Shown here in pieces: positions 9,341 through 59,297 of a stretch of DNA of 64,000 bases (position 1 is its first letter; the number at the start of each line of letters is the position of its first letter). The stretch covers positions 26,784,001 to 26,848,000 of the forward strand of contig NC_135900.1 in assembly GCF_964194155.1 (NCBI RefSeq), given 5' to 3'. Source of the stretch: Cetorhinus maximus. Taxonomy: Eukaryota. The position numbers and the translations under genes are program-made. A model generated the notes under the pieces. The model was not told where the DNA came from. It saw nothing but the letters and a program-made list of their open reading frames with translations, and ran no database searches.

Positions 9341-9790
9341 AACCCACCCCGCCCACCCCACCAACTCCCCCCCCCCCCACCCCACCACCCCCCCCACCAA
9401 CCCACCCCCCCCACCCCACCAACCCACCACCCCCCCACCAACCCACCCCACCCCACCAACACACCCCACCCCGCCAACACCAACCCACCCCCTCCACGCC
9501 CCCCAACCCACCCCACCCCCCACCAACCCACCCCCTCCACCCCACCGACACACACCCCCCACCCACCCCCACCAACACACACCCCCCACCCACCCCCACC
9601 AACCCACCCACCCCCCCCACCAACCCAACCAACCCCCCCACCCCCCCCACCAACACACCCACCCCCCCCACCAACACACCCACCCCCCCACCCCCACCCC
9701 CACCAACACACATCCCCCACCCACACCCACCACCCCACCACCCCCCCAACGCCCACACCCCCACCACCCCCCCAACCCCCACACCCCCCA
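9341..9790. repeat. C/A-rich low-complexity tract (G-rich on the LLPH sense strand) in LLPH intron 1
   Basis: About 450 bp composed almost only of CCCA/CCCCA/CCAA units. Confidence 0.9.
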
Positions 9791-11987: not shown

Positions 11988-13595
11988 TTAAGATCTAAAG
12001 TTGTTGAATTCAATATTCAGCCTGGAAGGCTGTAAAGTGCCTAGTCGGAAGATGAGGTGCTGTTCCTCCAGTTTGCGTTGGGCTTCACTGGAACAATGCA
12101 GCAAGCCAAGGACAGACATGTGGGCAAGAGAACAGGGTGGAGTGTTAAAATGGCAAGCGACAGGGAGGTTTGGGTCTTTCTTGCGGACAGACCGCAGATG
12201 TTCTGCAAAGCGGTCGCCCAGTTTGCGTTTGGTCTCTCCAATGTAGAGGAGACCGCATTGGGAGCAACGAATGCAGTAGACTAAGTTAGGGGAAATGCAA
12301 GTGAAATGCTGCTTCACTTGAAAGGAGTGTTTGGGCCCTTGGACGGTGAGGAGAGAGGAAGTGAAGGGGCAGGTGTTGCATCTTCTGCGTGGGCATGGGG
12401 AGGTGCCATAGGTGGGGGTTGAGGAGTAGGGGGTGATGGAGGAGTGGACCAGGGTGTCCCGGAGGGAACGATCCCTACGGAATGCCACCAGGGGTGGTGA
12501 AGGGAAGATGTGTTTGGTGGTGGCATCATGCTGGAGTTGGCGGAAATGGCGGAGGATGATCCTTTGAATGCAGAGGCTGGTGGGGTGATAAGTGAGGACA
12601 AGGGGGACCCTATCATGTTTCTGGGAAGGAGGAGAAGGCGTGAGGGCGGATGCGCGGGATATGGGCCGGACACGGTTGAGGGCCCTGTCAACAACCGTGG
12701 GTGGAAAACCTCGGTTAAGGAAGAAGGAGGACATGTCAGAGGAGCTGTTTTTGAAGGTAGCGTCATCAGAACAGATGCGACGGAGGCGAAGGAACTGAGA
12801 GAATGGGATGGAGTCCTTACAGGAAGCGGGGTGTGAGGAACTGTAGTCGAGGTAGCTGTGGGAGTCGGTAGGCTTGTAATGGATATTGGTGGACAGTCTA
12901 TCGTCAGAAATTGAGACAGAGAGGTCAAGGAAGGGAAGAGAAGTGTCAGAGATGGACCATGTGAAAATGATGGAGGGGTGGAGATTGGAAGCAAAATTAA
13001 TAAATTTTTCCAGGTCCCGACGAGACCATGAAGCAGCACCGAAGTAATCATCGATGTACCGGAGAAAGAGTTGTGGGAGGGGGTTGGAGTAGGACTGGAA
13101 CAAGGAATGTTCCACATACCCCATAAAGAGACAGGCATAGCTGGGGCCCATGCGGGTACCCATAGCCACACCTTTTATTTGGAGGAAGTGAGAGGAGTTA
13201 AAGGAGAAATTGTTCAGTGTGAGAACAAGTTCAGCCAGACGGAGGAGAGTAGTGGTGGATGGGGATTGTTCGGGCCTCTGTTCAAGGAAGAAGCTAAGGG
13301 CCCTCACACCATCCTGGTGGGGGATGGAGCTGTAGAGGGATTGGACATCCATGGTGAAGAGGAAGCGGTTGGGGCCAGGGAACTGGAAATTGTTAATGTG
13401 ACGTAAGGTATCAGAGGAATCACGGATGTAGGTGGGAAGGGACTGGACAAGGGGAGAGAGAAGGGAGTCAAGATAACGAGAAATGAGTTCCGTGGGGCAG
13501 GAACAGGCTGACACGATCGGTCTGCCAGGACAGTTCTGTTTGTGGATTTTGGGTAGGAGGTAGAAGCGGGCCGTCCGAGGTTGGGCGACTATCAA
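11988..13595 (-). CDS. Penelope-like reverse transcriptase + GIY-YIG endonuclease (open 535-aa C-terminal part of a frameshifted ORF)
   Basis: FYLLPKIHK...GRPIVS, MDVQSLYSSI, GVAMGTRMGPSYA, RYIDD (RT); VYCIRCSQCGLLYIGETKR..DRFAEH (GIY-YIG). Confidence 0.9.
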   Translation of the reverse strand: MIVAQPRTARFYLLPKIHKQNCPGRPIVSACSCPTELISRYLDSLLSPLVQSLPTYIRDSSDTLRHINNFQFPGPNRFLFTMDVQSLYSSIPHQDGVRALSFFLEQRPEQSPSTTTLLRLAELVLTLNNFSFNSSHFLQIKGVAMGTRMGPSYACLFMGYVEHSLFQSYSNPLPQLFLRYIDDYFGAASWSRRDLEKFINFASNLHPSIIFTWSISDTSLPFLDLSVSISDDRLSTNIHYKPTDSHSYLDYSSSHPASCKDSIPFSQFLRLRRICSDDATFKNSSSDMSSFFLNRGFPPTVVDRALNRVRPISRASALTPSPPSQKHDRVPLVLTYHPTSLCIQRIILRHFRQLQHDATTKHIFPSPPLVAFRRDRSLRDTLVHSSITPYSSTPTYGTSPCPRRRCNTCPFTSSLLTVQGPKHSFQVKQHFTCISPNLVYCIRCSQCGLLYIGETKRKLGDRFAEHLRSVRKKDPNLPVACHFNTPPCSLAHMSVLGLLHCSSEAQRKLEEQHLIFRLGTLQPSRLNIEFNNFRS

Positions 13596-15460
13596 GTTGG
13601 AAGCTGTGGGAGGAAGATCTCCAGAGGAGATGAGGTCAGTGACAGTCCTGGAAACAATGGCTTGATGTTCTGTGGTGGGGTCATGGTCCAGGGAGAGGTA
13701 GGAGGAAGTGTCTGCGAGTTGACGCTCAGCCTCCGCGAGGTAGAGGTCAATGCGCCAGACAACAACAGTACCACCCTTGTCAGCGGGTTTGATGACAATG
13801 TTGGGGTTGGACCTGAGAGAACGGAGTGCAGTAAGTTCAGAGAGAGACAGATTAGAATGGGTGAGAGGAGCAGAGAAATTGAGACGGCTAATGTCACGCC
13901 GACAGTTCTCAATGAAAAGATCAAGAGAAGGTAAGAATCCAGAGGGAGGGGTCTAGCTGGAGGAAGAATATTGGAGGTGGGTAAAAGGATCCGTTGAACG
14001 GGGAGAGGACTCCTGCCCAAAGAAGTGAGCACGGAGACGAAGACGGCGGAAGAAGAGTTCAGCATCATGCCGAGCCCGAAATTCATTGAGATGAAGGCCT
14101 AAGGGTATGAAGCTAAGTCCTTTGCTGAGCACTGAACGTTCAGCATCGGAGAGGGGAAGGTCAGGGGGTATAGTGAATACACGGCTGAGGCTGGGATTGG
14201 AAGATGGGGTGGGGACGGAGGGACAAGCAGGGGTGGAGGGTCCCAGATGGGTGTTGGTGTCAATGAGTTGTTGGAGCTTGCGTTCCTTAGCACTTGAAAG
14301 AGAAAAAGTTTCTTGTTGAGGCGACGGATGAGGCGAAGAATAAAATGAAACTGGGGGCACGCGCAGCTTTGAAAAAGGGTGCGGCGGTGCTGCTGGAGGG
14401 AGAGGTCGAGTGTGTTCATATGGCGGCGCATGACACTGAGTGTGGATCTCAGAATGCGATGGGAACAGCAGTCCGAGAAACGTTTTATGTCCCGGAGATA
14501 CCTGTAATCATGGGTGGGTTCGAAACAAGAGGGATGGAATTTCAGTTGAAATCCACGTGGGATGAGTCGGAGACAGAGACAGTCACTGAGAAAGGAGATA
14601 TGGCTGTGAAAGCGGGTTTTAGTAAACACCTTGTCAAACACCAGGAGAGAAATGGAAAGCAATGAAGGTGAGCAGGGCACAAGAGACAGGCGGAAATCCT
14701 GTCGGAGAACAGAACAATACTTCTTCAGAGAGGGCATTTCTTGAAGAGAGGTGGCAGTCAATTAAACACAGAGATAAAAACAAAAAGCTAAAAGCTACTG
14801 CGGATGCTCGAAACGTTAACTGATTTCTTCTCCACCGATGCTGCCAGACCTGCTGAGTTTTTCCAGGTAATTCTGTTTTTGTTTTGGATTTATTGCCCAT
14901 CCCTAATTGCTCTTGAGAAGCTGGTGGTGAGCCATCTTCTTGAACCACTGCAGTCCATGCACTGTAAGCACACCCACAGTGCTGTTAGGAACAGAGTTCC
15001 AGGATTTTGAGCCAGTGACGGTGATATAGTTTCTAGTCAGGATGGTGTGGGGCTTGCAGAGGAACCTGAAGGTGCCGGTGTTCCCATGCATCTGCTGCCC
15101 TTGCCCCTCTAGGTGGTATGGAAGGTGCTGTCAAGGGGCTGCAGTGCATCTTGTAGATGGTATTCACTGCTGCCACTGTGCATCAGTGATGGAATGAATG
15201 AACGTTTAAGATGTGGATGGGGTGCCAATCAAGCAGCCTTTGTGCTGAATGGTGTCAAGCTTCATGAGGGTTGTTAGAGCTGCATTCATCCAGACAAGTG
15301 GAGAGTATTCCAATACACTCCTGACTAGTACCTTGAAGATGGTGGACAGGCTTTGGGGAGTCAGGAGGCAAGTTCCTCACCTCAGAATTCCCTGACCTGC
15401 TCTTGTAGCCACAGTATTTGTATGGCTGGTCCAGTTCAGTTACTGGTCAATGGTAACTCC

Positions 15461-17510
15461 CAGTGTGTGGGTCAGTGTCTGGGAGTATGGACTGGCCTTG
15501 TGTGTAAGGCAGTGTCCAGGAATATGGACTGGCCCAAGGTGTGGTGCAGTGTCTGGAATGGACTTGCCTTTTGTGTGAGGAGGCATTGCCTCAGAGTATG
15601 GATTGCACCAGTGAGTGGGGCACTGTCTGGAGGTTTAGACCAGCAGTGTGTGAGAGACAGTGCCCAGGAGTATGGACCACAGGTGTCTGGGGCAGTGTGT
15701 GGGAATATGGACCAGCCTAATGTGTGGGGCGCGCAGTGCTATTGGGAGTATGGACCAGCCTAATGTGTGGGGCGCGCAGTGCTATTGGGAGTATGGACCA
15801 GCCTAATGTGTGGGGCGGACAGTGCGTATGGGGGTATGGACCGGCAGGGTGTGTGCAGGGCAGGGTGTGTGCGGGGCAGGGTGTGTGCGGGGCAGGGTGT
15901 GTGCGGGGCAGGGTGTGTGCGGGGCAGGGTGTGTGGGAATATGGACCAGCCCAGTGCGTGGGGCAGGGTGTGTGGGAATATGGACCAGCCCAGTGCGTGG
16001 GGCAGGATGTGTGTGGGGCAGGGTGTGTGGGAGTATGGGCCGGCCCAGTGTGTGAGAGTATGGACTGGCCCAGTGTGTGGGGCAGGGTGTGTGGGAATAT
16101 GGACCAGCCCAGTGTGTGGGGCAGGGTGAGTGGGAGTATGGGCTGGCCCGGTGTGTGAGAGTATGGACCGGCCCAGTGTGTGGGGCAGGGTGTGTGGGAA
16201 CATGCACCAGCCCAGTGTGTGGGGCAGGGTGTGTGCGAGTATGGGCTGGCCCGGTGTGTGAGAGTATGGACCGGCCTGGTGTGTGGGGCAGGGTGTGTGG
16301 GAACATGGACCAGCCCAGTGTGTGGGGCAGGGTGTGTGGGAGTATGGGCTGGCCCGGTGTGTGAGAGTATGGACCGGCCCAGTGTATGGGGCAGGGTGTG
16401 TGGGAACATGGACCAGCCCAGTGTGTGGGGCAGGGTGTGTGGGAGTATGGACCGGCCCAGTGTGTGGGGCAGGGTGTGTGGGAGTATGGGCCGGCCCGGT
16501 GTGTGGGAGTATGGACCGGCCCAGTGCGTGGGGCAGGGTGTGCGGGAGTATGGACCGGCCCAGCTTGTGGGGCAGGGTGTGTGGGAATATGAACCAGCCC
16601 AGTGTGTGGGGCAGGGTGTGTGGGAATATGGACCGGCCCAGTGCGTGGGGCAGGGTGTGCGGGAGTATGGACCGGCCCAGTGTGTGGGGAAGAGTGTGTG
16701 GGGCAGGGTGTGTGGGAGTATGGACCGGCCCAGCTTGTGGGGCAGGGTGTGGGAATATGAACCAGCCCAGTGTGTGGGGCAGGGTGTGCGGGAGTATGGA
16801 TCGGCCCAGTGTGTGGGGAAGAGTGTGTGGGGCAGGGTGTGTGGGAGTATGGACCGGCCCAGTGTGTGGGGCAGGGTGTGTGGGAGTATGGACCGGCCCA
16901 GTGTGTGGGGCAGGGTGTGTGGGAGTATGGACCGGCCCAGTGTGTGGGGCAGGGTGTGTGGGAGTACGGACCGGCCCAGTGTGTGGGGCAGGGTGTGTGG
17001 GAGTATGGACCGGCCCAGTGTGTGGGGCAGGGTGTGTGGGAATATGGACCGGCCCAGTGTGTGTGGGAATATGGACCGGCCCAGTGCGTGGGGCAGGGTG
17101 TGTGGGAGTATGGACCGGCCCAGTGTGTGGGAATATGGACCGGCCCAGTGCGTGGGGCAGGGTGTGTGGGAGTATGGACCGGCGCAGTGTGTGGGGCAGG
17201 GTGTACGGGAGTATGGACGGGCCCAGTGTGTGGGGCAGGGTGTGTGGGAGTATGGACTGGCCCAGTGTGTGGGAATATGGACCAGCCCAGTGCGTGGGGC
17301 AGGGTGTGTGGGAGTATGGACCGGCGCAGTGTGTGGGGCAGGGTGTGTGGGAGTATGGACCGGCCCAGTGTGTGTGGGAATATGGACCGGCCCGGTGTGT
17401 GGGGCAGGGTGTGTGGGAGTATGGACCGGCCCAGTGTGTGTGGGAGTATGGACCAGCCCAGTGTGTGGGGCAGGAGGTACGGGAGTATGGACCGGCCCAG
17501 TGTGTGGGGA
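15461..17510. repeat. 39-bp G-rich minisatellite (GTGTGTGGGGCAGGGTGTGTGGGAGTATGGACCGGCCCA)n
   Basis: 13-codon periodicity (CVGQGVWEYGPAQ) in the ORF track; homogeneous from ~15930 to 17510, diverged units at 15461-15900. Confidence 0.95.
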
Positions 17511-18700: not shown

Positions 18701-19454
18701 AATGAGTTAGACATGAAGTTAAAACCTTGATCAGATTGTAATTCAATTGGTAGGCCATAACGAGTGAAAAACTGAGTTAACTTTTCTATTACCACCTTAG
18801 CTGTAATTGCCCTTAAAGGAATAGCTTCTGGAAATCAGGTTGTCATATCCATGATTGTAAGGATATACTGATGTCCTGCATTCATTTTGGGTAATGGTCC
18901 TACACAATCTACTGATACCCGACTAAATGGTTCTTCAAAAACTGGTATGGGTATTAAAGGTGCTGGTTTGATTACATATTGAGGTTTACCTACTACATGA
19001 CATGTATGACACATTTTACAAAATTGCACTATGTCCTTATGAGGTCTTGGCCAAGTAAAATGCCTGTTTATCGATGCTTGGGTTTTCCATATTCCTACAT
19101 GTCCTGCCATAGGAATTTCATGTGCTACTCACAATATCTCCTTATGATACTTGGACAGTACCACTATCTGATGAACAACCATCCATTCCTCATCCCCAGG
19201 TTGGTGAAGGTGTTTCCACTTTTTCATCAGAACTCTGCTTTTAATGTAATATCACTCCGGAACTCCTTCCACCTCAGCTTCAGTTTGAGCTGACTGTGCT
19301 AACTTGTTTAACTCTGGATCTGCTTTCTGAGCCTCAATTAATGAAGATATGCCAAACACTTCCTTTGAATTATCCTCACCCTTAAAAATTTGGCTACACT
19401 AACATCTGCTCGTGGTATTACTTTGACCTCTGGTGATGGACTGTGTTTAGCCAT

Positions 19455-20062
19455 TGTGGAAGAATAAAATACATCTACAGGACAACTAAGGGTTAAACAG
19501 TTAAAATCGTAGTGGAATACTACAGCACAGTTCCCTCTTTTCTTCTAGCAGGTACACCTGCAGTTGCCAGCTAATTGAGCAGGAAAGGAGAAAAGGAGTA
19601 TCATAAACAAGCTTCCTAGAATCCTTGAGACAAGGCTAGGATGTCTGCCCCCAACACAAAGAGACAGGATCAAGCAATGGTCATCTGTTCTCTAGAGTGT
19701 ACACCCCCTAGCACTAAAGATAAGGTCAAGCATGGTTATCTATTCTCTGTCTCACTTTTTATTACTAGATGGGCTTCCCCCAATATCCCCTATAGTCGTA
19801 AATTAGAATAGACTAATTGTGTGTTGCATGCCAAAGACAATGATTCTCAATGTAATTAATTATTGAAGGTTAGACAGTCTTATCACCTTCAAGCTCTTTG
19901 ATATGTATGACTTTTACTATAAATATGTGTGTAATCTGATGCTTCTTCAGAGTGCCGGCTAGCTCCGTTGTATGCTGCTGGGCTCTCCATGATATCATGA
20001 TTCAATAAAGACTTCCAAGACAAACCTCCTGGGTCTGAGTGTTCACTCCATTTTCCGCGACA
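19455..20062 (+). repeat. ERV 5' LTR
   Basis: About 10 substitutions versus 25697-26304 by manual comparison; TATAAA 19918-19923, AATAAA 20004-20009. Confidence 0.95.
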
Positions 20063-20065
20063 AAT

Positions 20066-20083
20066 TGGCGACGAGGATGGGAT
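20066..20083 (+). promoter_or_regulatory. Primer binding site, tRNA-Ser(GCT)
   Basis: TGGCGACGAGGATGGGAT is the reverse complement of the vertebrate tRNA-Ser(GCT) 3' end ATCCCATCCTCGTCGCCA. Confidence 0.85.
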
Positions 20084-20648
20084 CCGACTGAAGTCCAGCA
20101 GCCTCTTAAGTTGGAGAGGTGATTGAAATCCTGGGCCGTCGGATCTCTAAAAAAGAACCCTCGTGGAGAAAGGGAGGAATAACTCTCCTAAGTTAGGGAG
20201 AGTACGAACTGCATCCTAGCTGAGAGGGGGATTGCAGTGAATTAGCATCCCAGCTGAAAGGGGGACTGCCAGTAAAAGGGTAGCTACCGACCAAAGAGAC
20301 TTAAGTGACCCAAAGAATCAGAGGACTTGTTAAGGAACTCTTAAACACCGGTGAGCGCATAGGGTAGGAAACGCGCTGCACTGTTAATTGTGTTTTCTTT
20401 TCAGAAAAATGGGAGGTCACAACAGCAGAACGGGCTCTGCCACACCCCCCGCTTCGCAAAGTACTAAGAACAAACCGAAACCGGCGAAACCAGAGCTTAA
20501 ATCAGGAACTTTGAAGATGGACAAGAAAACGGAATGAAAAATGGATGGAGGTAAAAAAAGTAGTAGTAGTATACCCAGGGGTTCGAGTACCATGGAGGTG
20601 AAAAGTAAGTAATTTCTGTGTTTTCTTTTGTGTATATTATTAAGTAAA

Positions 20649-20837
20649 ATGGGAAATATGACATCAAAGAAACCCCAGGTTCCCCCTTTGAAGGGAACCC
20701 CAAATGCTTATATGTATGTCCATTACGGTCCTGAAATTGTCCAATATGTTTCTGATTGGGTTAAATGGACTCAAAGTAAAGGAGAGATCTTCCCACCAGC
20801 TGGAACTTTTAATCGGGACAGATTTGAGCGCTTATAA
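20649..20837 (+). pseudogene. Retroviral gag matrix-like fragment
   Basis: MGNMTSK (MGxxxS myristoylation motif)...GTPNAYM...WVKWT....FPPAGTF, resembling class I retroviral matrix. Confidence 0.6.
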
Positions 20838-22489
20838 TATGTTTTAAGGGAGGTAGATAGTCCGCTACTGAATTTTCTGTAACTTAAAAAAAAAGAATGA
20901 ATTGATCTAAGTTACAAGAGCTGTTTGTGCTGAAGAGAGAGAGAGAGAGAGAAAGGGTACCCCTAGGGGGTTAATGAGCAATTTGCAAGCAGCAGCAGAG
21001 AAAATGTGAGCTTTCATCAGTTTGAAGGTCCCTATAGGTGGAGCCTTCAAGATCCCTTTATTCCCCCCACTGCTACTCGAAGATTCGTTTAGAGTTAAGT
21101 TCAATATTATAGGAGTATCGATACATACCTTTATCTATGTGTTCGTGTGCAATGAAGCATTTGTATGTGAGCTTTAATGTGTTTTATTCCCTGGATTGTT
21201 TTTTGTGTGTGTAGTTGAGCACGTTAGAGTCGAAAGCCCCATATTAGATTAAAGGAAAAGTTTATTCAAATATTCCAAAGTCTTGAGTATAAGGTTTGAG
21301 TTGAGATTTCTGGCAAAAATCATAATTTGAAGGGAGTGTAAAGATAAAACAGGGCTTGCCTTTATCTCATCCTTGAGATGAACCAACCCTTGTACCACCC
21401 CCTCGCAGACTAGTAGGGAATAACCCTCATCATCAGCCTCCAAGCTGATTGGGATTAATACATACGAGTTCGTATTCTAAAATTCTGAGAAAAAGAAATT
21501 ACTTGAAATTCAGAAGGATTCTAGGAAAACCAAAAGACATAAACACAAGGTCTAGATAGTTCCAATGGATAAAAAGGGGTTTCTTATGAAAGAGATGAAT
21601 TAAATATGAAAGGAAATCTGCTTTCCAAAAGCACTGGAATTTGAATTTGGGACAATCTTGAGATGTAAAGTGCAGTGTAATTTAACAGGTTACTTTTGAA
21701 TCACTAGGATGCTATCTAAGATAAAGAATGTGTCGATAAACATACTTAAATTATAACTTGGATACAAATCATTACACATGAAAAAGAGGTTGTTTTAATT
21801 TTGATAGTGTAAATTACAGTGCTTACAAAGTTTAAAAATTTGAGGTTTGGTTCTTGATAAAGTTCTCAAAAGGCAATTTTCATTTTAAAAGGCCTGAAAA
21901 CAATTGGCACTAATTCAAATGCTGCAAGCTTTTGTGTTTATAAGTCTGTTCCCAAAATATGAAGCTAAGCTCAAGATCTTGGCAAAGTTTGGCAGAAATC
22001 CAATTTTTGGCCGAGTTAATGAATCTGGGATAATTCTAAAAGAAAAGGGTCAGACACAATTTATTGGGTTACTTTTAAGACAATAAAATCTTTGAGAAGA
22101 AGAAAAGGAAGCAAAACATGTCAATACCTGATTTCTGTTTGAAAACTTATGAGAATACTTTATTGGATTGTAAAGTCTCTCCAGACAACCTGAACAAGAT
22201 AAGATGGTAGCAGTTGCAAGTGTAATATGGTATGAGGCAAGTAGGAGAATGAGTCAGGGAAAGAGGACATAATGTACAAACTGTTTTAATGGAAATTAAT
22301 TTGATAATCTGGCCATCAACTGAGGCATTGGAAACGCATAGGGGGAGATAAGCAAAGATCTAGAGACAGAGATCCCTGTTGAAATGGAACAGTTAATATG
22401 GCCTAAAGAGTAAGGAAACATTTTAAACAATCAAAACAATAGAGAAACTGAACTCCAGAGAACCTTAGGATGATCATGGTCAGGAAAGA

Positions 22490-23180
22490 AAACTTAGAGG
22501 TAAAGGGAAAGCTGGAAAAAGGCTAAATAGATGTATTACTGACTATATTAATGTGCCTGCAAGCTACAAAAAGTAAAACCACAGGATTAACACCTTGATG
22601 ACAGGCAGAGTTGAGCGGTTCCCAGAGAGAACCATCAATGGAAGTGAAAATACTGAGCCATTGAAAGATAGGATAAGAAGGTGCATTGTTGAGTTGTTTA
22701 AGGAATTGAGGCCTGACATGAGACAGCAGCAGGAAAGAGTAAACTGGAAGGAGTTTACCCAAATGGATTCAGATCAGGGAACTCATTTCACGGGGAGAGA
22801 CATTAAAGAAGTGTGTAATCTTATGGAGATTAAACAGAAATTCCATATTCCTTACCACCCCCAGAGTCCAGGGATGGTGGAAAGGATGAACTGAACTTTA
22901 AAAAAAAAACATCAATCAAGAGACAGGGAACAGCCCAATATTCTAATGCGCCGTGGGCTACCCCAAGCAGTACCGACAGGTTCACCCCATTTGAAATGAT
23001 AACAGGAAGGGCCATGCAATTACCTGAAGGTATTATAGTAGGAGATGTAGGGCCACTGAAAGGAAAAATACAGGACAATGTAAGAGAATTAAGTAGGCAA
23101 TTGCATGAGTTAAGGAAGGAAGTCAGAGACCGACAGGTGATTAAGGATATGGAAACAGGCAAATCCAAAGAGAAAGATAC
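22490..23180 (+). pseudogene. Retroviral integrase fragment A
   Basis: DSDQGTHFTG...HIPYHPQSPGMVERMN; TPFEMITGRAMQLP. Confidence 0.8.
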
Positions 23181-23254
23181 ATGACAATTGACCAAGCGGT
23201 AACCCAGAGAATGGGAGCCGATGTTAATGTCTCCACAGATCTACGATCCTGGTC

Positions 23255-24170
23255 GTGGGCCTCTCAGTAATGGCAACAAGGTCGGGGATCATCACTGCTC
23301 ATCCTGCACCACAGGAGGAACTTTGGTACAGCACGGACAGTGCCGAATGCGGCACGCAACGGAGAATGATAAATGTAACAGTAGGAGAACAAGTGCTTTC
23401 GAATTGTAGTAAGGGTTTGCTTCAGATCGGGCGTGGGAGGTCTGCCCAAAAGAGCCACTACCCAGCCACCTCCCACCTCTACTTTCACAGTCCGAGTAGA
23501 GATAATTGAAGACCCTCAAACCACACAGACTGATCCATTTTGTCCGACTATGCATCCAGGACCAACAAATGGTTTGGTACTGGTTAATCAGAAGTTTTGT
23601 ATGATAATGTACACCATGAGCTGGTACCCGTAGTCTTGAATATATCCGGAATCGTTCTGCTCAACCCATACCCAAGCACTCTATACGGCTCTGACACGCC
23701 AGTTGATGACTGAAGCAGTTCAGTTCAATGGCGAGATGCAATCAGGCTTGGGAGGGAACCGCATTAAGCCCAGCCTGATAAATGATGCCGCTACGATATT
23801 CAATATAGGGACATCATTGGTTAATCCAAAGCCTGGCTACCGTGCTCGAAAGTCATGCGGGGACTATCAATAAATTAACGGAAATAGGGAAAAATATTTC
23901 AGACGAAGCGAGCAGAAATTATGTATGCAACACCTATGGATCTTGGGCACTGGAACAAGCCCGAGAAAATTTAAGACAGACTAAAGAAGGGGTAGTCCCT
24001 TTATGGGTAACTAGTGAGCATCTATTGAATCTCTCACGACACAGGAATCATGACTTGACCGGTTGCCAGCTCAGGGGTTTAACGGTGTATGTAGAATGAA
24101 TGTTGAATGTATAGTGAATAGTAATATGCTAATAGGCATTGTATTAGTAATACCTGTCATACCTATGTCA
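23255..24170 (+). pseudogene. Envelope-like fragment A
   Basis: Follows integrase A; N-glycosylation sequons (NVT, NIS); degenerate furin site RIK(P)S followed by hydrophobic SLINDAATIFNIGTSLVN and a heptad-like region. Confidence 0.5.
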
Positions 24171-24186
24171 ATGACATAACCCAGGC

Positions 24187-24958
24187 ATGACACCCACAGT
24201 GACTGCTGGTACGGGACCCCAGCCATGGGGCCCATTTGTACACCTACAAATGGACTTTATACAAATGCCTAAATGTATAGAATATAATTATGTTTTAGTT
24301 CAAGTATGTTTGTTCTCGCAATGGGTGGAGGCGTATCCCACCCGACGAAATGATGCTGTTGTTGTTGTAAAATTGTTGTTCATTTTACTGTTAAAGTGAT
24401 AAAGGAACTGTTGAAGGCCTTACAATGCAACCATCACCTTTCCTGCCCATACCACTCCCAGTCTACTGGGGCGGTGGAAAGACAAAATGGTATTCTGAAA
24501 AACAAACTAAATTATGTGAAGAAACTGGTTTGAAATGGCCTGAAGCTCTACCCTTGGCGCTCATGGCTATGCACTCTCACCCTAACTGTATCACCTCCCT
24601 CTCTCCTTATGAAGTTGTAATGGGATGTCCTATGCGCCTCCCAGTGACCCCACCCTTGTCTGCTAGGGAAATGGACATCCACGCTATGGATGAGGGAATG
24701 ATTACATACTGTATAGCGCTCACTAATTCTCTCAAGAGCTTGCATATACAGGTAGTAGAAGCTCAGAAAAAGCCCACCATTGAAGATTGCCATCAATACC
24801 AGGCCGGGGACCTAGTCCTAGTAAAGACCTTCAGGAGAAAGAACTGTTTGGAACCTCGATGGAAAAGGCCTTTCGAAGTCCTGCTCACCACCCATACGGC
24901 CGTGAAGGTTGAAGGACGCCGTTGTGGATCCACGCATCACACATCAAGTGGACGCTGA
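24187..24958 (+). pseudogene. Retroviral integrase fragment B (class I, gamma/epsilon-like)
   Basis: GPFVHLQMDFIQMP..YVLV.VCLFSQWVEAYP; WPEALPLALMAM..LSPYEVVMG; GDLVLVK..LEPRWK.PFEVLLTTHTAVKV. Confidence 0.85.
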
Positions 24959-25005
24959 CCTTGGACAGAAGGGCTTGTGCAAGAACTTTAACTGAGCCGT
25001 CAGAA

Positions 25006-25672
25006 TGCTGACTCTGATTTGGATCCTGTCCTGCGTGGTCCTTGCGGGGGCATGGAATACGAATTCTGCGGTTCAATGAATGCAGGCCATAGCCTCGCAA
25101 GTTAATCGGACTAAATGTTGGATTTGTACTAATTTTCCTCTATGCAAAACAGCAGCTGAATTGCATGAGAGGGTGGAAAAGACCCTACCTTGTGCTGCTA
25201 ACAACTCGAACGGCCCTGAAGGTTAAAGGGAAGGAAGACTGGGTCCACGCCACTCGTTGTAAAAGACATTGTCCGGCAACAATATAACAGCTGTTACCAA
25301 GTGATCTAACTTGTATTATGTATTGAAACGGAAAGTTTGAGTAATTTTCATAAAAAAGATTCTTGGTGGTCTGTAATACTAGGTTGGTTCTCCGGTTGGG
25401 GAAGTTGGTTGCTATACGTTTTAATTGGGTTGGTCGTAGCATGTGTTATAGGGTGTTGTGCATGTATTGCTTTGCGGATTTGCTGTTCCCAGGTTATTAA
25501 CAGTGTCTCTACTGGATTAGGAGGAGCTCCAGTTGTCCCTCAATTGATACGCACTGGCCCCAGCGAAACCCACTGGTGGGGAGAAAAAGTTTACCCTGCC
25601 AGGGATCGGCCTTTTCTTTATGGTTATGAGCCCCCTTATGATGATGAATATACTATTCCTCATTGGTGTTAA
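25006..25672 (+). pseudogene. Class I env leader (CWIC), a third integrase tail and an env TM anchor
   Basis: MLTLIWILSCVVLAG..N.....IASQVNRTKCWIC (25006-25145); PYLVLLTTRTALKVKGKEDWVHATRCK (~25183-25263); WWSVILGWFSGWGSWLLYVLIGLVVACVIGCC (25337-25672). Confidence 0.7.
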
Positions 25673-25696
25673 TCTGAAAGATTAACAAGGAGGGAT

Positions 25697-26304
25697 TGTG
25701 GAAGAATAAAATACATCTACAGGACAACTAAGGGTTAAACAGTTAAAATCGTAGTGGAATACTACAGCACAGTTCCCTCTTTTCTTCTAGCAGGTACACC
25801 TGCAGTTGCCAGCTAATTGAGCAGGAAAGGAGAAAAGGAGTATCATAAACAAGCTTCCTAGAATCTTTGAGACAAGGCTAGGATGTCTGCCCCCAACACA
25901 AAGAGACAGGATCAAGCAATGGTCATCTGTTCTCTAGAGTGTACACCCCCTAGCACTAAAGATAAGGTCAAGCATGGTTATCTATTCTCTGTCTCACTTT
26001 TTATTACTAGATGGGCTTCCCCCAATATCCGCTATAGTCGTAAATTAGAATAGACTAATTGTGTATTGCATGCCAAAGACAATGATTCTCAATGTAATTA
26101 ATTATTGAAGGTTAGACAGTCTTATCACCTTCAAGCTCTTTGATATGTATGACTTTTACTATAAATATGTGTGTACTCTGATGCTTCCTCAGAATGCTGG
26201 CTAGCTCCGTTGTATGCTGCTGGGCTCTCCATGATATCATGATTCAATAAAGACTTCCAAGACAAACCTCCTGGGTCTGAGTGTTCACTCCGTTTTCCAT
26301 GACA
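25697..26304 (+). repeat. ERV 3' LTR
   Basis: Direct repeat of 19455-20062, preceded by a polypurine tract. Confidence 0.95.
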
Positions 26305-29144
26305 GCCATTGCTCTGATCACCACACATGATGGAAAAATACCAGGAACTTGTTCTTATAACTGCTCCATCTCTTTAGCCTCTCTCGGACTTAATTATGGG
26401 CAAAGCTATAAGCTTCACTCCTGCAAAATCATTCCCCAGGAGTAAATCAACTCCATCCACAGGTAATTTCTCCTACAACCACCGATCCAGACAACAAATC
26501 ACACTCCAATTGCACTTTGTACAATGGAACCAGGATGTAATCTCCACTTATCCCGTTTCCCAATACTTCAGCTTTCATTGAACTCTCTGGATGGAAAACT
26601 AGGTCCTTCTCCAGCAAAGGAGTTTGCATAGTTCCTGTGTCCCTTAATATAGTTATGGGTTTGGCTGCATTATTTGATGAAAAAGGGCTTACTGTTCCTT
26701 CAGACAAAAACCCTTTCTATCTCTCATCTACCTTATCCACTTCATCTGTATTCACAGCAGTGGTTTCGTCCAGATCCTTATTTGTAGTTAAAGCTACAAT
26801 TTGATCTGTGGCATTTTCTTTTGAGTTCCCCTTTTTGGACTCACTCTTACAAACTCCAATAAGTCTCATGGGCTTCCCTTGCAACTTCCAGCATTCTGAA
26901 TGAATGTGTCCCACTTTATTACAATGGAAACACTTAGACCTTTGAGTTTCACCTCAACCCTCAGTACCTTCCTTCCTGATCTGGGGAGGAGATCTCAAGG
27001 TATTCCCAGCTATCCATTCTTTACCCTGGCTATTTGCCTTCCTTTCACTCTCCCACTTTCTCTCCTTTTCAAATTTATGGGGGTGATGGAAAAAAGGTTT
27101 AGTTTTATGGATCAACTCATAATCATCTGCCATTACTGCTGCCTGTCTAGCAGTTGCAACCCTTTGTTCTTCAACATGGGTTCTTATTATAGAATGTAGA
27201 GAGTTTTTAAATTCTTCCAAGAGAATGGTCTCTCTGAGAACTTCATAGGTAGTTTTAACTCCAAATGCTCATATCCACCTGTCAAAACTACTTTGCTTAA
27301 CCCTTTCAAATTCAATGTTTCCTTAAATTTTGAAACTTTAGTCTGTATGCTTCAGGGGCCAACTCATAAGCACTCAAAATAGGTCTTTTTTTAAACACAT
27401 CATAATCCCTAGAAACCTCCCATGAAGCATAAATTTCCTGTGGTCTACCTGTCAATTTGATTTACTTGGGCAATATCCAGTTTTCGTTTGGCCAGTTCAT
27501 TTGTTTAGCTATCTTCTCAAATGAAATAAAGAATGCTTCAACATCCCTTTCCTCAAACTTTGGAAGAGCTTGTACAAATTTAAACATCTCCCCACTGAAT
27601 GCTGATCTGGAAATAAGTCCTGCCTCACCTACTGGTGTCTCTTTTTTAACTGCCAGCATTCTAAGCTGGAATTCTCTGTCTCTCTCTTTTTCTCTTTTAT
27701 CCTTTTCTAACTTTGCCATTTCTAATTCCCTTTCTTGTTTTCTTTCTCTCTCCTGCCTTTCTGCCTGTTCCCTTTGAAATGCTCTTCCTTATTCTTCTGC
27801 CTCTAGTTCCAGCTTTTTCATTTCCAATTCTTTTGCCTTTTTCGTTTACCTCCAATTCAAGTTTTCTCAGTTCCTTTGGTTGTTCAAATTCAAGCTGCTT
27901 CATTTCTAACTGAAGCCTCACTACCTCTAGCTGTGACTCACTAGTGTCAGGTATCACTTCCAACTGTAAATGCTGTGCTATACTTTTGATTATCTCTGCC
28001 TTCCTAGCTTTGGCAGGCAATCCTACTCTTAATTTACTTGCCAATTTGATTAACCTGGCTTTTGGGTTCCCTTGTAAAATTGTCAAGGATATCTCTTCCA
28101 CTTGCAGGAAAGCTTTAGCAGTTTCCAGTGCCATCTTATTTTTGATAGTACAAACCTGGTGTTTCCTTTTAGCTTTTATTACTTACTAAATCTACACCCA
28201 AATTGTAGTTGTCTTTTGTTCCAAAATATCCCAGACCCAAGCCCCCAGACTTTGTCATGACTTACTGGGGATAGTGCGCTGCAATATCAAACTATACTGC
28301 TCCCGAGCTGCAACAAATGTGAAAAGTTTGATTAAACCGCCTAACTGTTTAATTTAGGTTAACATAATATGAGCACCAGGTTTGTAAACTTAATAAGTAA
28401 GTGACTGTTTATTGAAAAAATTGTCTTTAACCAGTGACAAAAAAAATGTGAACTGCTAATTTCTAATTCTATAACCTAAACTCTACCGCTTCTTAAATCC
28501 CTATGCACACACATACAAGACACATAAGACACACAAAAAAACATGGATTTTAAAGGTTGGGATGAAACTGTTCAATAGTACCAATTCTGGAGTACAGGAT
28601 TTGACAGGTTGATTTTGATCCATGTCTTACAAATTCCTTTCAGTACTTTGTTGATGACACGAGGAGGTCCTCCCAGCCCTTTCAGTCTTTAGCTCACTGG
28701 TTGAGCACTTGCTTTTCAATGTCTCTAATGGTGATTTTCCCCTTTTCCTTTTGACAGGGGTTTTTCAGAGAAAGCAGGTTACAGAGATATGAGAAAAAAA
28801 CAATTAGCTATCATTGTAGAATTACTGGAATCTTACACACACAGGAGAAAGAGATTTTAGGTCTTTTCTCATTTTAGGCTAGGAACTTCTTCTCTGCTGC
28901 ACTGCTCTCTCACAAACCATGGTCACCCGGTTAGGAGCCAATTAAAATGTTGTTGCTAGGCAGTTCCCAATTAGATCGGACTCCTCCCTGGCACCATCCT
29001 GTCTTTCATGGTGCACACTGTTCCAGGACAGCAACATTGTATATATCCCTCACACTGTTCCAGTTTGTAATTTGTAATTTTAATCCACAGACCAACAGAA
29101 ATAAAAAGATACGTTATTTACAAAGTTCACAATGCTGTAACGAT

Positions 29145-31890: not shown

Positions 31891-33278
31891 GCAAAATAAA
31901 AATACCTGGAAAAACTCAGCAGGTCTGGCAGCATCTGCAGAGAGGAACACAGTTAACGGTTCGAGTCCATATGACTCTTCAACAGAACTAAGTAAAAATA
32001 GAAAAGAGATGAAATATAAGCTGGTTTAAGGGGGGGTAGAGCTGGAAAGAGGGCCAGTGATAGGTGGAGATAGCCAAAAGATGTCATAGACAAAAGGACA
32101 AAGAGGTGTTGAAGGTGGTGATATTACCTAAGGAATGTGCTAATTAAGGGTAGAAAGCAGGACAAGCAAGGTACAGATAGCCCTAGTGGGGGTGGGGTGG
32201 GGTGAAGGGAAGGGATCAAAATAGGCTAAAAGGTAGAGATGAAACAATGGATGGAAATACATTTAAAAATAATGGAAATAGGTGGGGAAAGAAAAATCTA
32301 TATAAATTATTGGAAAAAAAAGGGGGGGATCGGAAAGGGGGTGGGGATGGAGGAGAGAGTTCATGATCTAAAATTGTTGAACTCAATATTCAGTCCGGAA
32401 GGCTGTAAAGTGCCTAGTCGGAAGATGAGGTGCTGTTCCTCCAGTTTGTGTTGAGCTTCACTGGAACAATGCAGCAGGCCAAGGACGGGCATGTGGGCAT
32501 GAGAGCAGGGTGGAGTGTTGAAATGGCAAGCAACAGGGAGGTCTGGGTAATGCTTGCAGACAGACCGAAGGTGTTCTGCAAAGCGGTCACCCAGTCTGCG
32601 TTTGGTCTCTCCAATGTAGAGGAAACCGCACTGGGAGCAACGAATGCAGTAGACTAAATTGAGGGAAGTGCAAGTGAAATGCTGCTTCACTTGAAAGGAG
32701 TGTTTGGGCCCTTGGACAGTGAGGAGGGGAAGTAAAGGGGCAGGTGTTGCACCTTCCGCGGTTGCATGGGAAGGTGCTGTGGGAGGGGGTTGAGGTGTAG
32801 GGGGTGATGGAGGAGTGGACCAGGGTGTCCTGGAGGGAACGATTCCTGCAGAATGCCACCAGGGGGGCTGAAGGGAAGATGTGTGGTGGCATCATGCTGG
32901 AGTTGGCGGAAATGGCGGAGGATGATCCTTTGAATGCGGAGGCTGGTGGGGTGATAAGTGAGGACAAGGGGGACCCTATCATGGTTCTGGGAGGGAGAGG
33001 AAGGTGGATGCGCGGGAGATGGGCTGGACATGGTTGAGGGCCCTGTCAACCACCGTGGGTGAAAAACCTTGGTTAAGGAAGAAGGAAGACATGTCAAAGG
33101 AACTGTTTTTGAAAGTGGCATCCTCGGAACAGATGTGATGGAGGCGGAGGAACTGAGAGAATGGGATGGAGTCCTTACAGGAAGCGGGGTGTGAGGAGCT
33201 GTAGTCGAGGTAGCTGTGGGAGTCGGTAGGCTTGTAATGAATATTGGTGGACAGTCTATCACCAGAAATTGAGACAGA
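31891..33278 (-). mobile_element. 5'-truncated Penelope-like element (RT end, GIY-YIG, pLTR)
   Basis: Highly similar to 11513-12920; VYCIRCSQCGFLYIGETKR; imperfect TSD TCTTAC(G/A)AA at 31882-31890 and 33279-33287; hammerhead-like motif 31951-31989. Confidence 0.9.
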
Positions 33279-33361
33279 TCTTACAAATGTCAGGTTTTGT
33301 AAATGGTCATACTTTAAATTGTATCTTTACTTCCAAGATAGAACTAAGTTGGGGATCTAGA

Positions 33362-45859: not shown

Positions 45860-48500
45860 CTCCACATCCCCCTTCCTGATCTCTCCCTGCCACTTTCCTG
45901 CTCGCCATCTCCCCCTCCCCAACTTGCACTTTCCCCCTCCCACTACCCCCTTTCTCCTCCCCATATCTCCACCCTATCAGCCCCTGCTCCCTCTCCCCTT
46001 ACGCCACCCTGTCCCCACGCTCCCTCTCCCCTCACACCGCCCGGTCCTCACGCTCCCTCTCCCCTCACACCGGCCTGTCCCCACGATCCCTCTCTACTTA
46101 CACCACCCTGTCCCCACGCTCCCTCTCCCCTCACGCCGCCCTGTCCCCACACTCCCTCTCCCCTCGCGCAGCTTTACACCACCCTGTCTCCCTCTCAATC
46201 TCCCCTTACCTCGCCCTCTCATATCCCCCTGCCTACTTCCCCTCCCTTCCCCCCACTCTCCCCTCACCTTCCCACATCCCCTTGCCCTCCTTTCCCTCCC
46301 CCACACTCTCCCTGTCACCTTCCCTCTTCCCCCCCCATACTTTCCTCCTGTCACCTTCCCTCGTCCCCTCGCCATCTCCCCCTTTTTCCCACCCCGATCC
46401 CCTCCACCCCCTCTTCCCACCCTGATACCCTCCACCCCCCTCTTCCCACCCCCCCCTCTCCCACCCCACCCCCCTTTTCCCACCCCACCCCCTCTCCACC
46501 ACCCTCCTTTCCCCACCCCGCCCTCCTTTCCCCACCCCACACCCCCCTCCCTTTCCACTCCCACTCCCCCTTCCCACCCCACACCCCCCTCCCTTTTCCA
46601 ACCACCCTCCTTTCCCACCCCACACCCCCCTCCCTTTTCCAACCACCCTCCTTTCCCACCCCACACCCCCCTCCCTTTTCCACCCCCCCTCCACCCCACA
46701 CCCCCCTCCCTTTTCCACCCCCCCTCCACCCCACACCCCCCTCCCTTTTCCACCCCCCTTTCCCACCCCACACCCCCCTCCCTTTTCCACCCCCCTTTCC
46801 CACCCCCACACACTCACCCTCCTTTTCCCCCCCCCTCCACCCCCCTTTCCCACCCCACACCCCCCTCCCTTTTCCACCCCCCCTCCACCCCCCTTTCCCA
46901 CCCCACACCCCCCTCCCTTTTCCACCCCCCCCTCCACCCCCCTTTCCCACCCCACACCCCCCCTCCCTTTTCCACCCCACACCCCCCTCCCTTTCCCACC
47001 CCACACCCCCCTCCCTTTTCCACCCCACACCCCCCTCCCTTTCCACCCCACACCCCCCTCCCTTTCCACCCCACACCCCCCTCCCTTTCCACCCCACACC
47101 CCCCTCCCTTTCCACCCCACACCCCCCTCCCTTTCCACCCCACACCCCCCTCCCTTTCCCACCCCACACCCCCCTCCCTTTCCCACCCCACACCCCCCTC
47201 CCTTTCCCACCCCACACCCCCCCCCCTTTCCCACCCCCCCCACCCCCCTCCCACCCCACCCCACCCCCCCCTCCCTTTTCCACCCCCCTCCCCTCCCTTT
47301 TCACACCCCCTTTCCACCCCACACCCCCCTCCACCCCACACCCCCCTCCACCCCACACCCCCTCCCTTTCCACCCCACACGCCCCTCCTTTCCCTTTCCC
47401 ACTCCCCCTCCCACCCCACCCTCCTTTCCCACCCCACCCTCCTTTCCCACCCCACACCCCCCTCCCTTTCCCACCCCACCCTCCTTTCCCACCCCACACC
47501 CCCTCCCTCTTTCCCACCCCACCCCGCCTTTTCCCACCCCACACCCCCGGGGGCTCCCTCCTTCCCACCCCACCCCTTTCCACCCCCCCTCCACCCTCCC
47601 TTTCCCACCCCCCCTCCACCCTCCCTTTCCCACCCCCCCCTCCACCCTCCCTTTCCCACCCCCCCCTCCACCCTTTCCCACCCCCCCTCCACCCTCCCTT
47701 TCCCACCCCCCTCCACCCTCCCTTTCCCACCCCCCCTCTCCACCCCACACCCCCATCCCTTTTCCCACCCCCCCCTCCACCCCCCCTTTTTCCCACCCCC
47801 CCTTTTTCCCACCCCCCCCTCCACCCCCCCTTTTTCCCACCCCCCCCTCCACCCCCCCTTTTTCCCACCCCCCCCTCCACCCCCCCTTTTTCCCACCCCC
47901 CCTTTTTCCCACCTCCCCTCCACCCCCCCTTTTTCCCACCCCCCCTTTTTCCCACCTCCCCTCCACCCTTTTTCCACCCCCCCTTTTTCCCACCCCCCCT
48001 CCACCCCCCTTTTTCCCACCCCCCCTTTTTCCCACACCCCCCCTCCACCCCCCCTTTTTTCCCACCCCACCTTTCCCCACCCCCACCCCCCTTTCCCCAC
48101 CCCCACCCCCCTTTCCCCACCCCCACCCCCCTTTCCCCACCCCCACCCCCCTTTCCCCACCCCCACCCCCCTTTCCCCACCCCCCCCCTTTCCCCACCCC
48201 CACCCCCCTTTCCCCACCCCCTCCACCCCCCTTTCCCCACCCCCTCCACCCCCCTTTCCCCACCCCCTCCACCCCCCTTTCCCCACCCCCTGCACCCCCC
48301 TTTCCCCACCCCCTCCACCCCCCTTTCCCCACCCCCTCCACTTCCCATCTCTTCCTCCCCTGTCCTCAGCCCCTACCCCATCCTCCCCTCCGCCTCCTCC
48401 CCATCTACCCTCCCCCCCTTCGTCTCCCCCTCCCCCCCTTCGTCTCCCCCTCCCCCCCTTCGTCTCCCCCTCCCCCCCTTCGTCTCCCCACCCCGAGATC
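45860..48500. repeat. ~2.6-kb compound pyrimidine-rich (C-rich) tandem array in TMBIM4 intron 1
   Basis: Successive sub-arrays: ~33-bp CCCTGTCCCCACGCTCCCTCTCCCCTCAC.., ~24-bp TTTCCACCCCACACCCCCCTCCC, TTTCCCCACCCCCACCCCCC, and ~20-bp CTTCGTCTCCCCCTCCCCCC x4. Confidence 0.95.
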
Positions 48501-59258: not shown

Positions 59259-59297
59259 GCCCAGCCTGTTCCCTCTCTCTTTACCGGGATTCCCGCC

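Follow-up and report, generated by a model that had tools for sequence, protein, structure and literature searches.

The endogenous retrovirus (ERV) at 19455..26304, on the forward strand of a 64,000-nt window of the Cetorhinus maximus genome (the whole stretch analysed, to which all coordinates refer), belongs to a family of several hundred copies in that genome and is nested in structure. Painting against 36 donor-type proviruses gives clean blocks in the order C[B[core + A]B]C, where A, B and C are three retroviruses (Table 1). Genomic searches gave 334 matches for one internal junction and none for the control, and 580 for a motif of the core. The lineage very probably goes back to an RNA that was packaged together with three helper retroviruses in turn and, through template switches in reverse transcription, acquired both ends from every one of them. 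With each replacement the element would gain LTR, PBS and leader with gag head on one side and pol tail, env, PPT and U3 on the other, which would place it under the primer, packaging and integrase of the helper concerned. Later deletions would trim the older ends, and ongoing co-packaging would keep refreshing the outermost 3' module.

Table 1. Features of the element and its target site duplication (TSD), in coordinates of the window.
Feature	Position	Strand	Remarks
Left TSD	19450..19454		5 bp, GCCAT
5' LTR, virus C type	19455..20062	+	88-91% to virus C LTRs; 10 differences from 3' LTR
PBS	20066..20083	+	18 nt, after 3-nt spacer; same as in virus C
Virus C leader and gag head	20084..20555	+	ATG at 20409; match to virus C
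Virus B leader remnant and gag head	20556..20857	+	ATG at 20649; 85-88% to virus B
AT-rich non-coding core	20860..22490	+	common to all stages; 20860-22240 seldom deleted
Integrase fragment 0, A-lineage type	22518..22732	+	41-62% aa to A-lineage integrases
Integrase fragment A, A-lineage type	22742..23154	+	mostly 45-69% aa; about 70% nt over 140 nt
Virus A env, 5' two thirds	23228..24171	+	72-93% nt to virus A; deletions and frameshifts
Virus B integrase and env leader (CWIC)	24163..25139	+	84-87% nt, 72-91% aa to virus B
Virus C integrase tail and env start	25140..25323	+	104-nt GT-AG segment of virus C absent between 25171/25172
Virus C env tail (TM anchor)	25330..25672	+	86-87% nt to virus C; follows env deletion of about 1 kb
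Polypurine tract (PPT)	25684..25696	+	precedes 3' LTR
3' LTR, virus C type	25697..26304	+	match to virus C; pairs with 5' LTR
Right TSD	26305..26309		5 bp, GCCAT

The LTR pair differs by 10 substitutions in 608 positions (1.6% divergence) and no indels, and together with the TSD on both sides and the purine tract before the 3' LTR this bears out the intact ends described in an earlier note on this DNA. The PBS is one that we take to be of tRNA-Ser type. That note also called the element young, which the LTR divergence supports in a relative sense only; related sequence is present in runs under three organism labels. None of the runs is recorded as RNA, and those that may be RNA consist of contigs, which carry no information on expression or strand. 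A tblastn comparison with six ORFs from the three donor viruses gave no credible match to protease, RT or RNase H in the element (three matches, E 0.06-0.7, 8-29 aa), in agreement with its description as a non-autonomous element without protease or RT. The ORFs at 22577 and 24175 have a Pfam rve domain, and those at 24395 and 25093 have MLVIN_C. The three integrases listed earlier are confirmed, but the list was incomplete, with the fragment at 22518-22732 overlooked. The integrase pieces trace to different donors and are dissimilar in DNA, as expected of pieces from different retroviruses and not of internal duplications, and the two gag heads are likewise from two different viruses, C and B.

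The donors A, B and C and the intermediates, here called A-wrapped, B-wrapped and C-wrapped (with or without env), are all found in the same genome, and among these donors are viruses of autonomous type that share the element's LTR and PBS, as the earlier note proposed to look for. The mosaic predates integration, as had been supposed, since all 40 scored genomic matches are colinear through the A/B and B/C junctions. The same joints recur at many loci that differ in flanks and TSD, and the B/C joint and the env deletion are bridged by contigs from independent runs. A-wrapped copies were found at L021-L027, L043, L044, L140 and L150. B-wrapped copies constitute 19 of 40 loci in one sample and 24 of 40 in the core-motif sample, and C-wrapped copies 20 of 40 and 12 of 40, respectively; no fourth wrapper type was seen in the 40 core-motif loci, one of which is unclassified. 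In two B-wrapped copies, L146 and L158, B gag is separated from the core by about 115 nt of A gag, and B therefore wrapped an element that was already A-wrapped.

TSD length changes with the wrapper; in B-wrapped and C-wrapped copies it agrees with that of the outer donor, as do LTR and PBS. B-wrapped copies have an exact 4-bp TSD in 21 of the 29 with ends found, with one mismatch in seven more, and virus B itself has 4 bp (four exact and four with one mismatch, n=8). C-wrapped copies have an exact 5-bp TSD in 29 of 33, and virus C has 5 bp (four insertions exact, two with one mismatch, three without TSD). The A stage is mixed, with two exact 5-bp, one exact 4-bp, two ambiguous and one absent TSD, next to two exact 4-bp TSDs for virus A. 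The earlier reading of mobilisation in trans combined with recombination probably holds; that TSD length follows the outer donor is an indirect sign of co-packaging and mobilisation by helper proteins. The TSD length can be seen as a direct footprint of the integrase that moved each stage.

Median LTR divergence is 0.038 for B-wrapped copies (16 pairs), 0.025 for C-wrapped copies with more env (8 pairs) and 0.012 for the type in the window (6 pairs). A-wrapped copies range from 0.023 to 0.059, with 0.034 and 0.048 in the core-motif sample; they are not older than B-wrapped copies by this measure, so the stages overlapped in time. Within the A-wrapped copies, those wrapped by B or C group as a single clade (support 0.998), and in a tree of the non-coding core the C-wrapped copies nest within the B-wrapped (0.80). 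The midpoint-rooted tree of the A-derived part instead places the B-wrapped clade inside the C-wrapped (0.85-0.92), contrary to the simple order.

The part that persists through all stages is a non-coding core of 1.4 kb, which suggests a role in cis. No donor was found for 20860-22490 (1.6 kb) among the 36 donor-type proviruses by blastn, with tblastn and tblastx in subsets, nor were donors found for integrase fragments 0 and A, the latter not deriving from the A copies fetched. Five distinct 5' joints, one to A gag and four to B gag, have their ends within about -10 to +19 nt of the 5' edge of the core. Among 15 deletion classes (at least 60 nt, in 30 two-LTR copies) one lies within 20860-22240, which makes up 32% of the stretch; a hand binomial gives about 0.03-0.05 with a boundary set post hoc. 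We put somewhat less than even odds on the core giving some advantage in cis, and it may be a passenger. A bolder proposal, which we hold tentatively, is that the 1.4-kb core is a helper-independent cis element, a retroviral satellite RNA favouring export or packaging, that jumped from a clade III- or loki-like virus to two class I viruses while shedding env splice acceptors.

As has been argued for recKoRV, an invading virus could instead simply have been disabled at each stage by recombining with abundant older ERV RNA, the core being neutral stuffer that survives by its central position, and to this we give nearly even chances. It is favoured by the lack of recognizable structure: none conserved was seen in the core, folding z-scores are never below -1.7 in 22 windows, and Rfam gave no family at gathering score, with two matches below threshold. 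The higher conservation of the core (0.81-0.95, against 0.80-0.87 for integrase A) is uncorrected for CpG content. The scarcity of deletions in 20860-22240 and the clustering of the five 5' joints at the core edge speak against it. It shares its mechanism with the history preferred here, and the core is the sole point of difference. A hairpin at the 5' edge was tried as a candidate and rejected; its 9-bp stem is broken in 27 and compensated in one of 675 pair cells, and folding scores do not support it.

The earlier note had the element collecting pol-env junctions serially and perhaps keeping the integrase-end/env-start pieces for a splice acceptor, export or packaging signal. Each placeable 3' capture does have its start within pol, ahead of env (integrase 0, A, B and C, and RNase H in L067), and full-length env is often kept in A- and C-wrapped copies. 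However, the mosaic is nested. Both virus B and virus C contributed one piece on the 5' side and one on the 3' side, so the pol-env pieces are what the replacement of ends left behind. It is also in or adjoining the integrase and env pieces that 14 of the 15 deletion classes fall, and B env is deleted in every B-wrapped copy with the env region listed. Of 32 C-wrapped copies, 31 have lost the 104-nt GT-AG segment of virus C and, with it, what is likely the env splice acceptor of that virus. We therefore regard serial collection for such a signal as unlikely.

Shared variants are poor in amino-acid changes, by a dN/dS-like ratio, in the outermost 3' module alone. The ratio is 0.21-0.49 for A env in A-wrapped copies, 0.40 for B integrase in B-wrapped and 0.20 for C env in C-wrapped copies. 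When buried, the pieces are near 1 (A env in B-wrapped copies 0.89-0.93, B integrase in C-wrapped 1.12), as under neutrality, with one exception in the buried A env remnant of C-wrapped copies (0.52, p 0.03). A low ratio was rejected as proof of a working env. The truncated, dead B integrase is as low as the envs, so the low ratios reflect refreshing from the helper and not function, which also counts against retention for a cis signal.

Recombination or gene conversion at the DNA level between integrated proviruses, followed by amplification, is still less probable. Similar joints are expected from RNA- or DNA-level exchange, and some joints have microhomology, such as the 6 nt where the virus B piece overlaps the virus A env piece. 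This microhomology was dropped as the primary crossover because an older A/B joint with 130 nt more sequence is present in 15 of 80 copies; the A/B joint in the window is probably a later deletion. The donors lack long homology at the joints, overlapping by 2 nt at the older A/B joint and meeting bluntly at B/C, and the two ends are replaced as a pair, which a retroviral replicon requires. The 29 recurrent deletions listed represent about 21 distinct events, three of them readable as GT-AG and only the 104-nt one in canonical context; this spliced-type loss points to an RNA step in the founder lineage. Finally, an assembly artefact, later insertions in one provirus or duplication of a single integrase are refuted at the family level by the junction matches, the independently bridged joints, the absence of internal LTRs in the element and the unlike integrase pieces of different donors.

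Like other recombinant ERVs, the element has LTRs, PBS and PPT from one virus (C), an interior of other, older ERVs, and amplification after recombination. The closest known systems are recKoRV and Harlequin. In the available parts of PMC6112702, recKoRV1 of the koala is described with newer retrovirus ends (LTR and gag leader; env tail and LTR) around an older degraded ERV interior, in many copies with TSDs, microhomology at some joints and LTRs drawn from several helper variants, all as here. It went through one round with one helper, whereas the present family went through three or more nested rounds, its donors and intermediates survive, its TSD changes in length and a non-coding core persists. 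Human Harlequin is an amplified multi-family mosaic with the ends of one family (LTR2-HERVE ... HERVE-LTR2), attributed to co-packaging and polymerase jumps (PMC4724089, PMC5753468). Its named parts are all class I, whereas the inner shell here is not, and the available parts of these sources mention neither an ordered series nor a TSD switch. A class III ERV with a class I env has been reported in frogs (PMC8278194). Mouse ETn/MusD and VL30, the latter variable in LTR and PBS (PMC4859993), are also non-coding, non-autonomous and moved by helpers in trans, but with one helper lineage each and no nested remains of older helpers in the available parts of PMC6466679 and PMC4859993. No earlier account of this family, or of an ERV with three shells and its intermediates, was found in the literature covered, which takes in few subscription papers and Repbase entries.

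The histories of mosaic ERVs are usually unreadable, and here donors, intermediates and order are recoverable within one genome. They suggest that a non-autonomous ERV lineage can persist beyond its helper when its ends are replaced again and again, even across very distant retroviruses, and that the same cells of the germ line must have expressed these viruses. They also single out 1.4 kb of sequence as a target for tests of a function in cis.

Donors B and C are, by sequence, class I (gamma/epsilon-like). Their RT scores 490-497 bits to MLV/XMRV against 170-184 to foamy RT and groups with fish, amphibian and gamma-type sequences, and Pfam finds the MLVIN_C integrase tail and TLV_coat env. 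Donor A appears clade III-like, its Env having a predicted F fold. The best score of its RT is to foamy RT (69 bits against 53 for MLV, on a 131-aa piece), but its Gag has CCHC-type motifs, which to our knowledge foamy Gag lacks. It falls outside the class I clade in a tree that has no named loki or foamy references. Lokiretroviruses and foamy-like clade III ERVs, as far as the available text of PMC7947760 describes them, resemble donor A in gag-pol-env organization with tether and RNase H (common to all retroviruses and not diagnostic) and in an Env with signal peptide, basic cleavage site, coiled coil, TM and F-type fold. The integrase looks unlike two lokiretrovirus integrase passages in an incomplete text of the supplement of that paper, from which two of three motif terms are absent. 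An assignment of donor A to the lokiretroviruses was withdrawn on these missing terms and the foamy-leaning RT and Env profile scores.

The Env of donor A is predicted to have a paramyxovirus-F fold, related to Mononegavirales fusion proteins. Nothing clear was found for it by sequence in PDB, Pfam (PF00523 not matched) or a set of 5.8 billion. The alignment-based model (pLDDT 71.6, against 35 for the single-sequence fold) matches RSV F (Foldseek E 2.5e-11) and NDV F (VIA Z 12.1, 363 aligned, rmsd 21.6). Foamy Env has the same fold (Z 8.2 and 7.6), and the donor A Env profile gives a weak match to it (E 0.012).

The mosaic provirus in the window is real and belongs to an amplified family. The earlier note described an intact two-LTR provirus without protease or RT, and this was borne out: its two LTRs are identical but for 10 sites and are flanked by an intact 5-bp TSD, the PBS and PPT are both in position, and queries with donor protease, RT and RNase H ORFs gave no credible match in the provirus. 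Pfam places the integrase core and the MLV-type integrase tail twice each among its ORFs. The LTR has 1240 genomic candidates, with 96-100% identity in the 40 scored. For the 3' interior there are 1674, and all 40 scored (window included) align in one piece over the A/B and B/C joints. With at most two mismatches, 334 genomic matches were counted for a 30-mer spanning the A/B joint and 580 for a 28-mer taken from the core, compared with 0 for the controls. The same mosaic junctions thus recur in many copies, and the joints are family-wide. Related sequence is present in runs carrying three organism labels, and contigs assembled from runs read through both the B/C joint and the site of the env deletion.

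A search of the genome with pol proteins, followed by fetching of the matched loci, gave three groups of gag-pol-env proviruses, here called viruses A, B and C. The autonomous-type element with the LTR and PBS of the window provirus is present as virus C. Two sets of virus C proviruses (L047, L161-L163 and L166; L056, L172 and L178) each recur at several places with identical flanks and are thus segmental duplicates; the two LTRs of these proviruses differ by 8-12%.

Features of the window and the loci of matching donor proviruses
Feature	Window positions	Donor loci	Remarks
Provirus	19455-26304		two 608-bp LTRs, TSD, PBS, PPT
Virus C match	19455-20555, 25140-26304	L047, L050, L051, L056	same LTR and PBS as provirus
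Virus B match	20556-20857, 24163-25139	nine loci	different LTR and PBS
Virus A match	env piece up to 24171	L041, L061 and others	third LTR type
Virus B leader unit	20556-20607		single 45-nt unit left
Core	20860-22490
Gypsy-like frame	27697-28182 (-)		161 aa, resembles gypsy-type gag start; no Pfam match
Penelope-like element	11988-13952 (-)		654-aa open frame; RT and GIY-YIG matches
Penelope-like fragments	near 32361-33280, 55396-56507
LINE-type RT fragment	51655-52698 (-)		347 aa
Minisatellite and low-complexity arrays	9342-9789, 15463-17510, 45986-48489		39/103-nt minisatellite; long C-rich arrays
Tandem array	57318-59259		1.9 kb; its 15-25-nt units, in which AGCT and runs of G are frequent, resemble immunoglobulin switch-region repeats

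The donor segments are nested around the core, and all four stages of the series are present in the genome: copies with A ends and core (stage 1), with B ends (stage 2), with C ends and more env (stage 3), and of the window type (stage 4). Forty loci taken in list order from exact junction matches, passing over loci fetched earlier and a few more, comprised 19 stage-2, 14 stage-3 and 6 stage-4 copies and one unclassified. A further 40, picked by core motif for having no listed junction match, comprised 3 stage-1, 24 stage-2 and 12 C-wrapped copies, again with one unclassified. Two stage-2 copies retain A gag between B gag and core, and 15 of the 80 copies keep an older, longer A/B joint. Because of the nesting, the order is A, then B, then C. 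Trees of 66 and 64 rows (two low-cover loci dropped) support A before B and C; B before C is supported by the tree of the non-coding core (0.80) but not by that of the A-derived part. Median LTR divergence is 0.038 in stage 2 (16 pairs), 0.025 in stage 3 (8) and 0.012 in stage 4 (6). By this measure stage 1 does not predate stage 2, so the stages overlapped in time. In L029, L040 and other stage-2 leaders the 45-nt unit of the virus B leader is tandemly repeated, up to about 35 times. In L067 (G000:C5:23657900-23667899), which has A-type ends, the core is followed by RNase H, integrase and env of virus A; here the same core has independently acquired a different, longer 3' piece of A.

Template switching recombines two co-packaged retroviral RNAs. 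Serial helper switching very probably explains the family: in at least three rounds the element would have taken both of its ends from a new helper, the captured ends being trimmed later and the core possibly contributing in cis. Every 3' capture that can be placed begins inside pol, and the elements are near 6.4-7.1 kb in total length, compared with 8.6-9.1 kb for the donors.

Integrase determines TSD length, and TSD length switches between the B-wrapped and C-wrapped stages. Among copies with both ends found (they were not in 15 stage-2 and 14 stage 3-4 copies), an exact 4-bp TSD is present in 21 of 29 at stage 2 and an exact 5-bp TSD in 29 of 33 at stages 3-4. Virus B has 4-bp TSDs (n=8; four exact, four with one mismatch). 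Scoring of 17 C-type proviruses gave two exact 5-bp TSDs, and two more appear after a 1-nt end offset visible in the flanks; two independent insertions (one as four duplicates) have one mismatch, three (one present twice) have no TSD, and the ends were not found in four. A-stage TSDs are of mixed length and uninformative. Integrase recognises the LTR ends of its own virus, as PMC6112702 also states.

Among variants found in at least two copies, amino-acid changes are depleted at every stage in the outermost 3' module, whereas buried modules mostly lack this depletion (one exception, ratio 0.52). Env function might be read from this pattern, but a truncated B integrase that is untranslatable as pol shows it too, and the best reading of the depletion is therefore that copies recombined with the helper again and again. 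Stage-3 env comes from at least two C-related strains, with 73-74% and 84-85% identity to references.

Viruses B and C are class I. Virus A falls outside the class I clade in an RT tree (41 rows, gypsy-rooted, one named row dropped), and its Env has a predicted fold like that of paramyxovirus and pneumovirus F. Such a fold is reported for lokiretroviruses (PMC7947760), but it is also common to foamy Env and hence not exclusive to them. The RT scores best with foamy RT, and the integrase looks unlike the lokiretrovirus integrase passages seen in the supplement of that paper; virus A is for these reasons labelled only clade III-like and left unplaced. The protein nearest to donor A by identity is from a shark (63% over 44% of the query), and the genome is probably that of a shark. 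Integrases 0 and A of the window provirus are of A-lineage type, yet share only about 41-69% protein identity with the fetched A copies, so their direct donors are not among these; nor was a donor of the core found among the fetched proviruses. An RNase H search of the genome gave 122 matches, part of them class I. L041, L042, L054 and L061-L080 are diverse non-class-I retroviruses, and the Env of at least one group among them has the F fold; they merit classification because cartilaginous fish are absent from the hosts listed in PMC7947760.

Deletion classes of at least 60 nt number 15 across 30 two-LTR copies; 14 of them fall within 22245-25139 and the other in the preceding 1.4 kb. The joint with A gag and four joints with B gag all end within about 30 nt of the 5' edge of the core. 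Folding and covariation scoring and Rfam gave no RNA structure signal in the core. A cis function of the core is slightly less likely than not, and its boldest form, a helper-independent cis element, is less likely still.

Between 25171 and 25172, 104 nt are absent; in virus C this segment begins with a site resembling a GT donor and closes with a pyrimidine tract and AG. All but one of 32 C-wrapped copies lack it. In three of four runs guessed to be RNA, leader or gag-head sequence is joined to this point, which is consistent with an env acceptor of virus C here but, as these are contigs, no more than a hint. The loss suggests that a spliced RNA founded the C-wrapped lineage. It argues against the proposal that the integrase-end/env-start pieces were kept as a splice acceptor. 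Seven stage-2 copies (e.g. L128, L146 and L158) have a 270-273-nt deletion in B integrase, also readable as GT-AG, which removes a candidate B env acceptor; its splice context is weaker than that of C.

Env recombinants of class I and class III are already known (PMC5753468), and another is reportedly described in PMC8278194. Harlequin is a multi-family mosaic for which co-packaging is the explanation, and ETn and VL30 are non-coding elements mobilised in trans. RecKoRV represents one round of the same process (PMC6112702). New here are a series of three shells whose order can be read and whose donors and intermediates are present, a TSD footprint and a persistent core; the open-access literature searched contained no report of the family, which does not prove that none exists.

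The window provirus may have inserted into an older gypsy-like element, as judged from the frame downstream of it.
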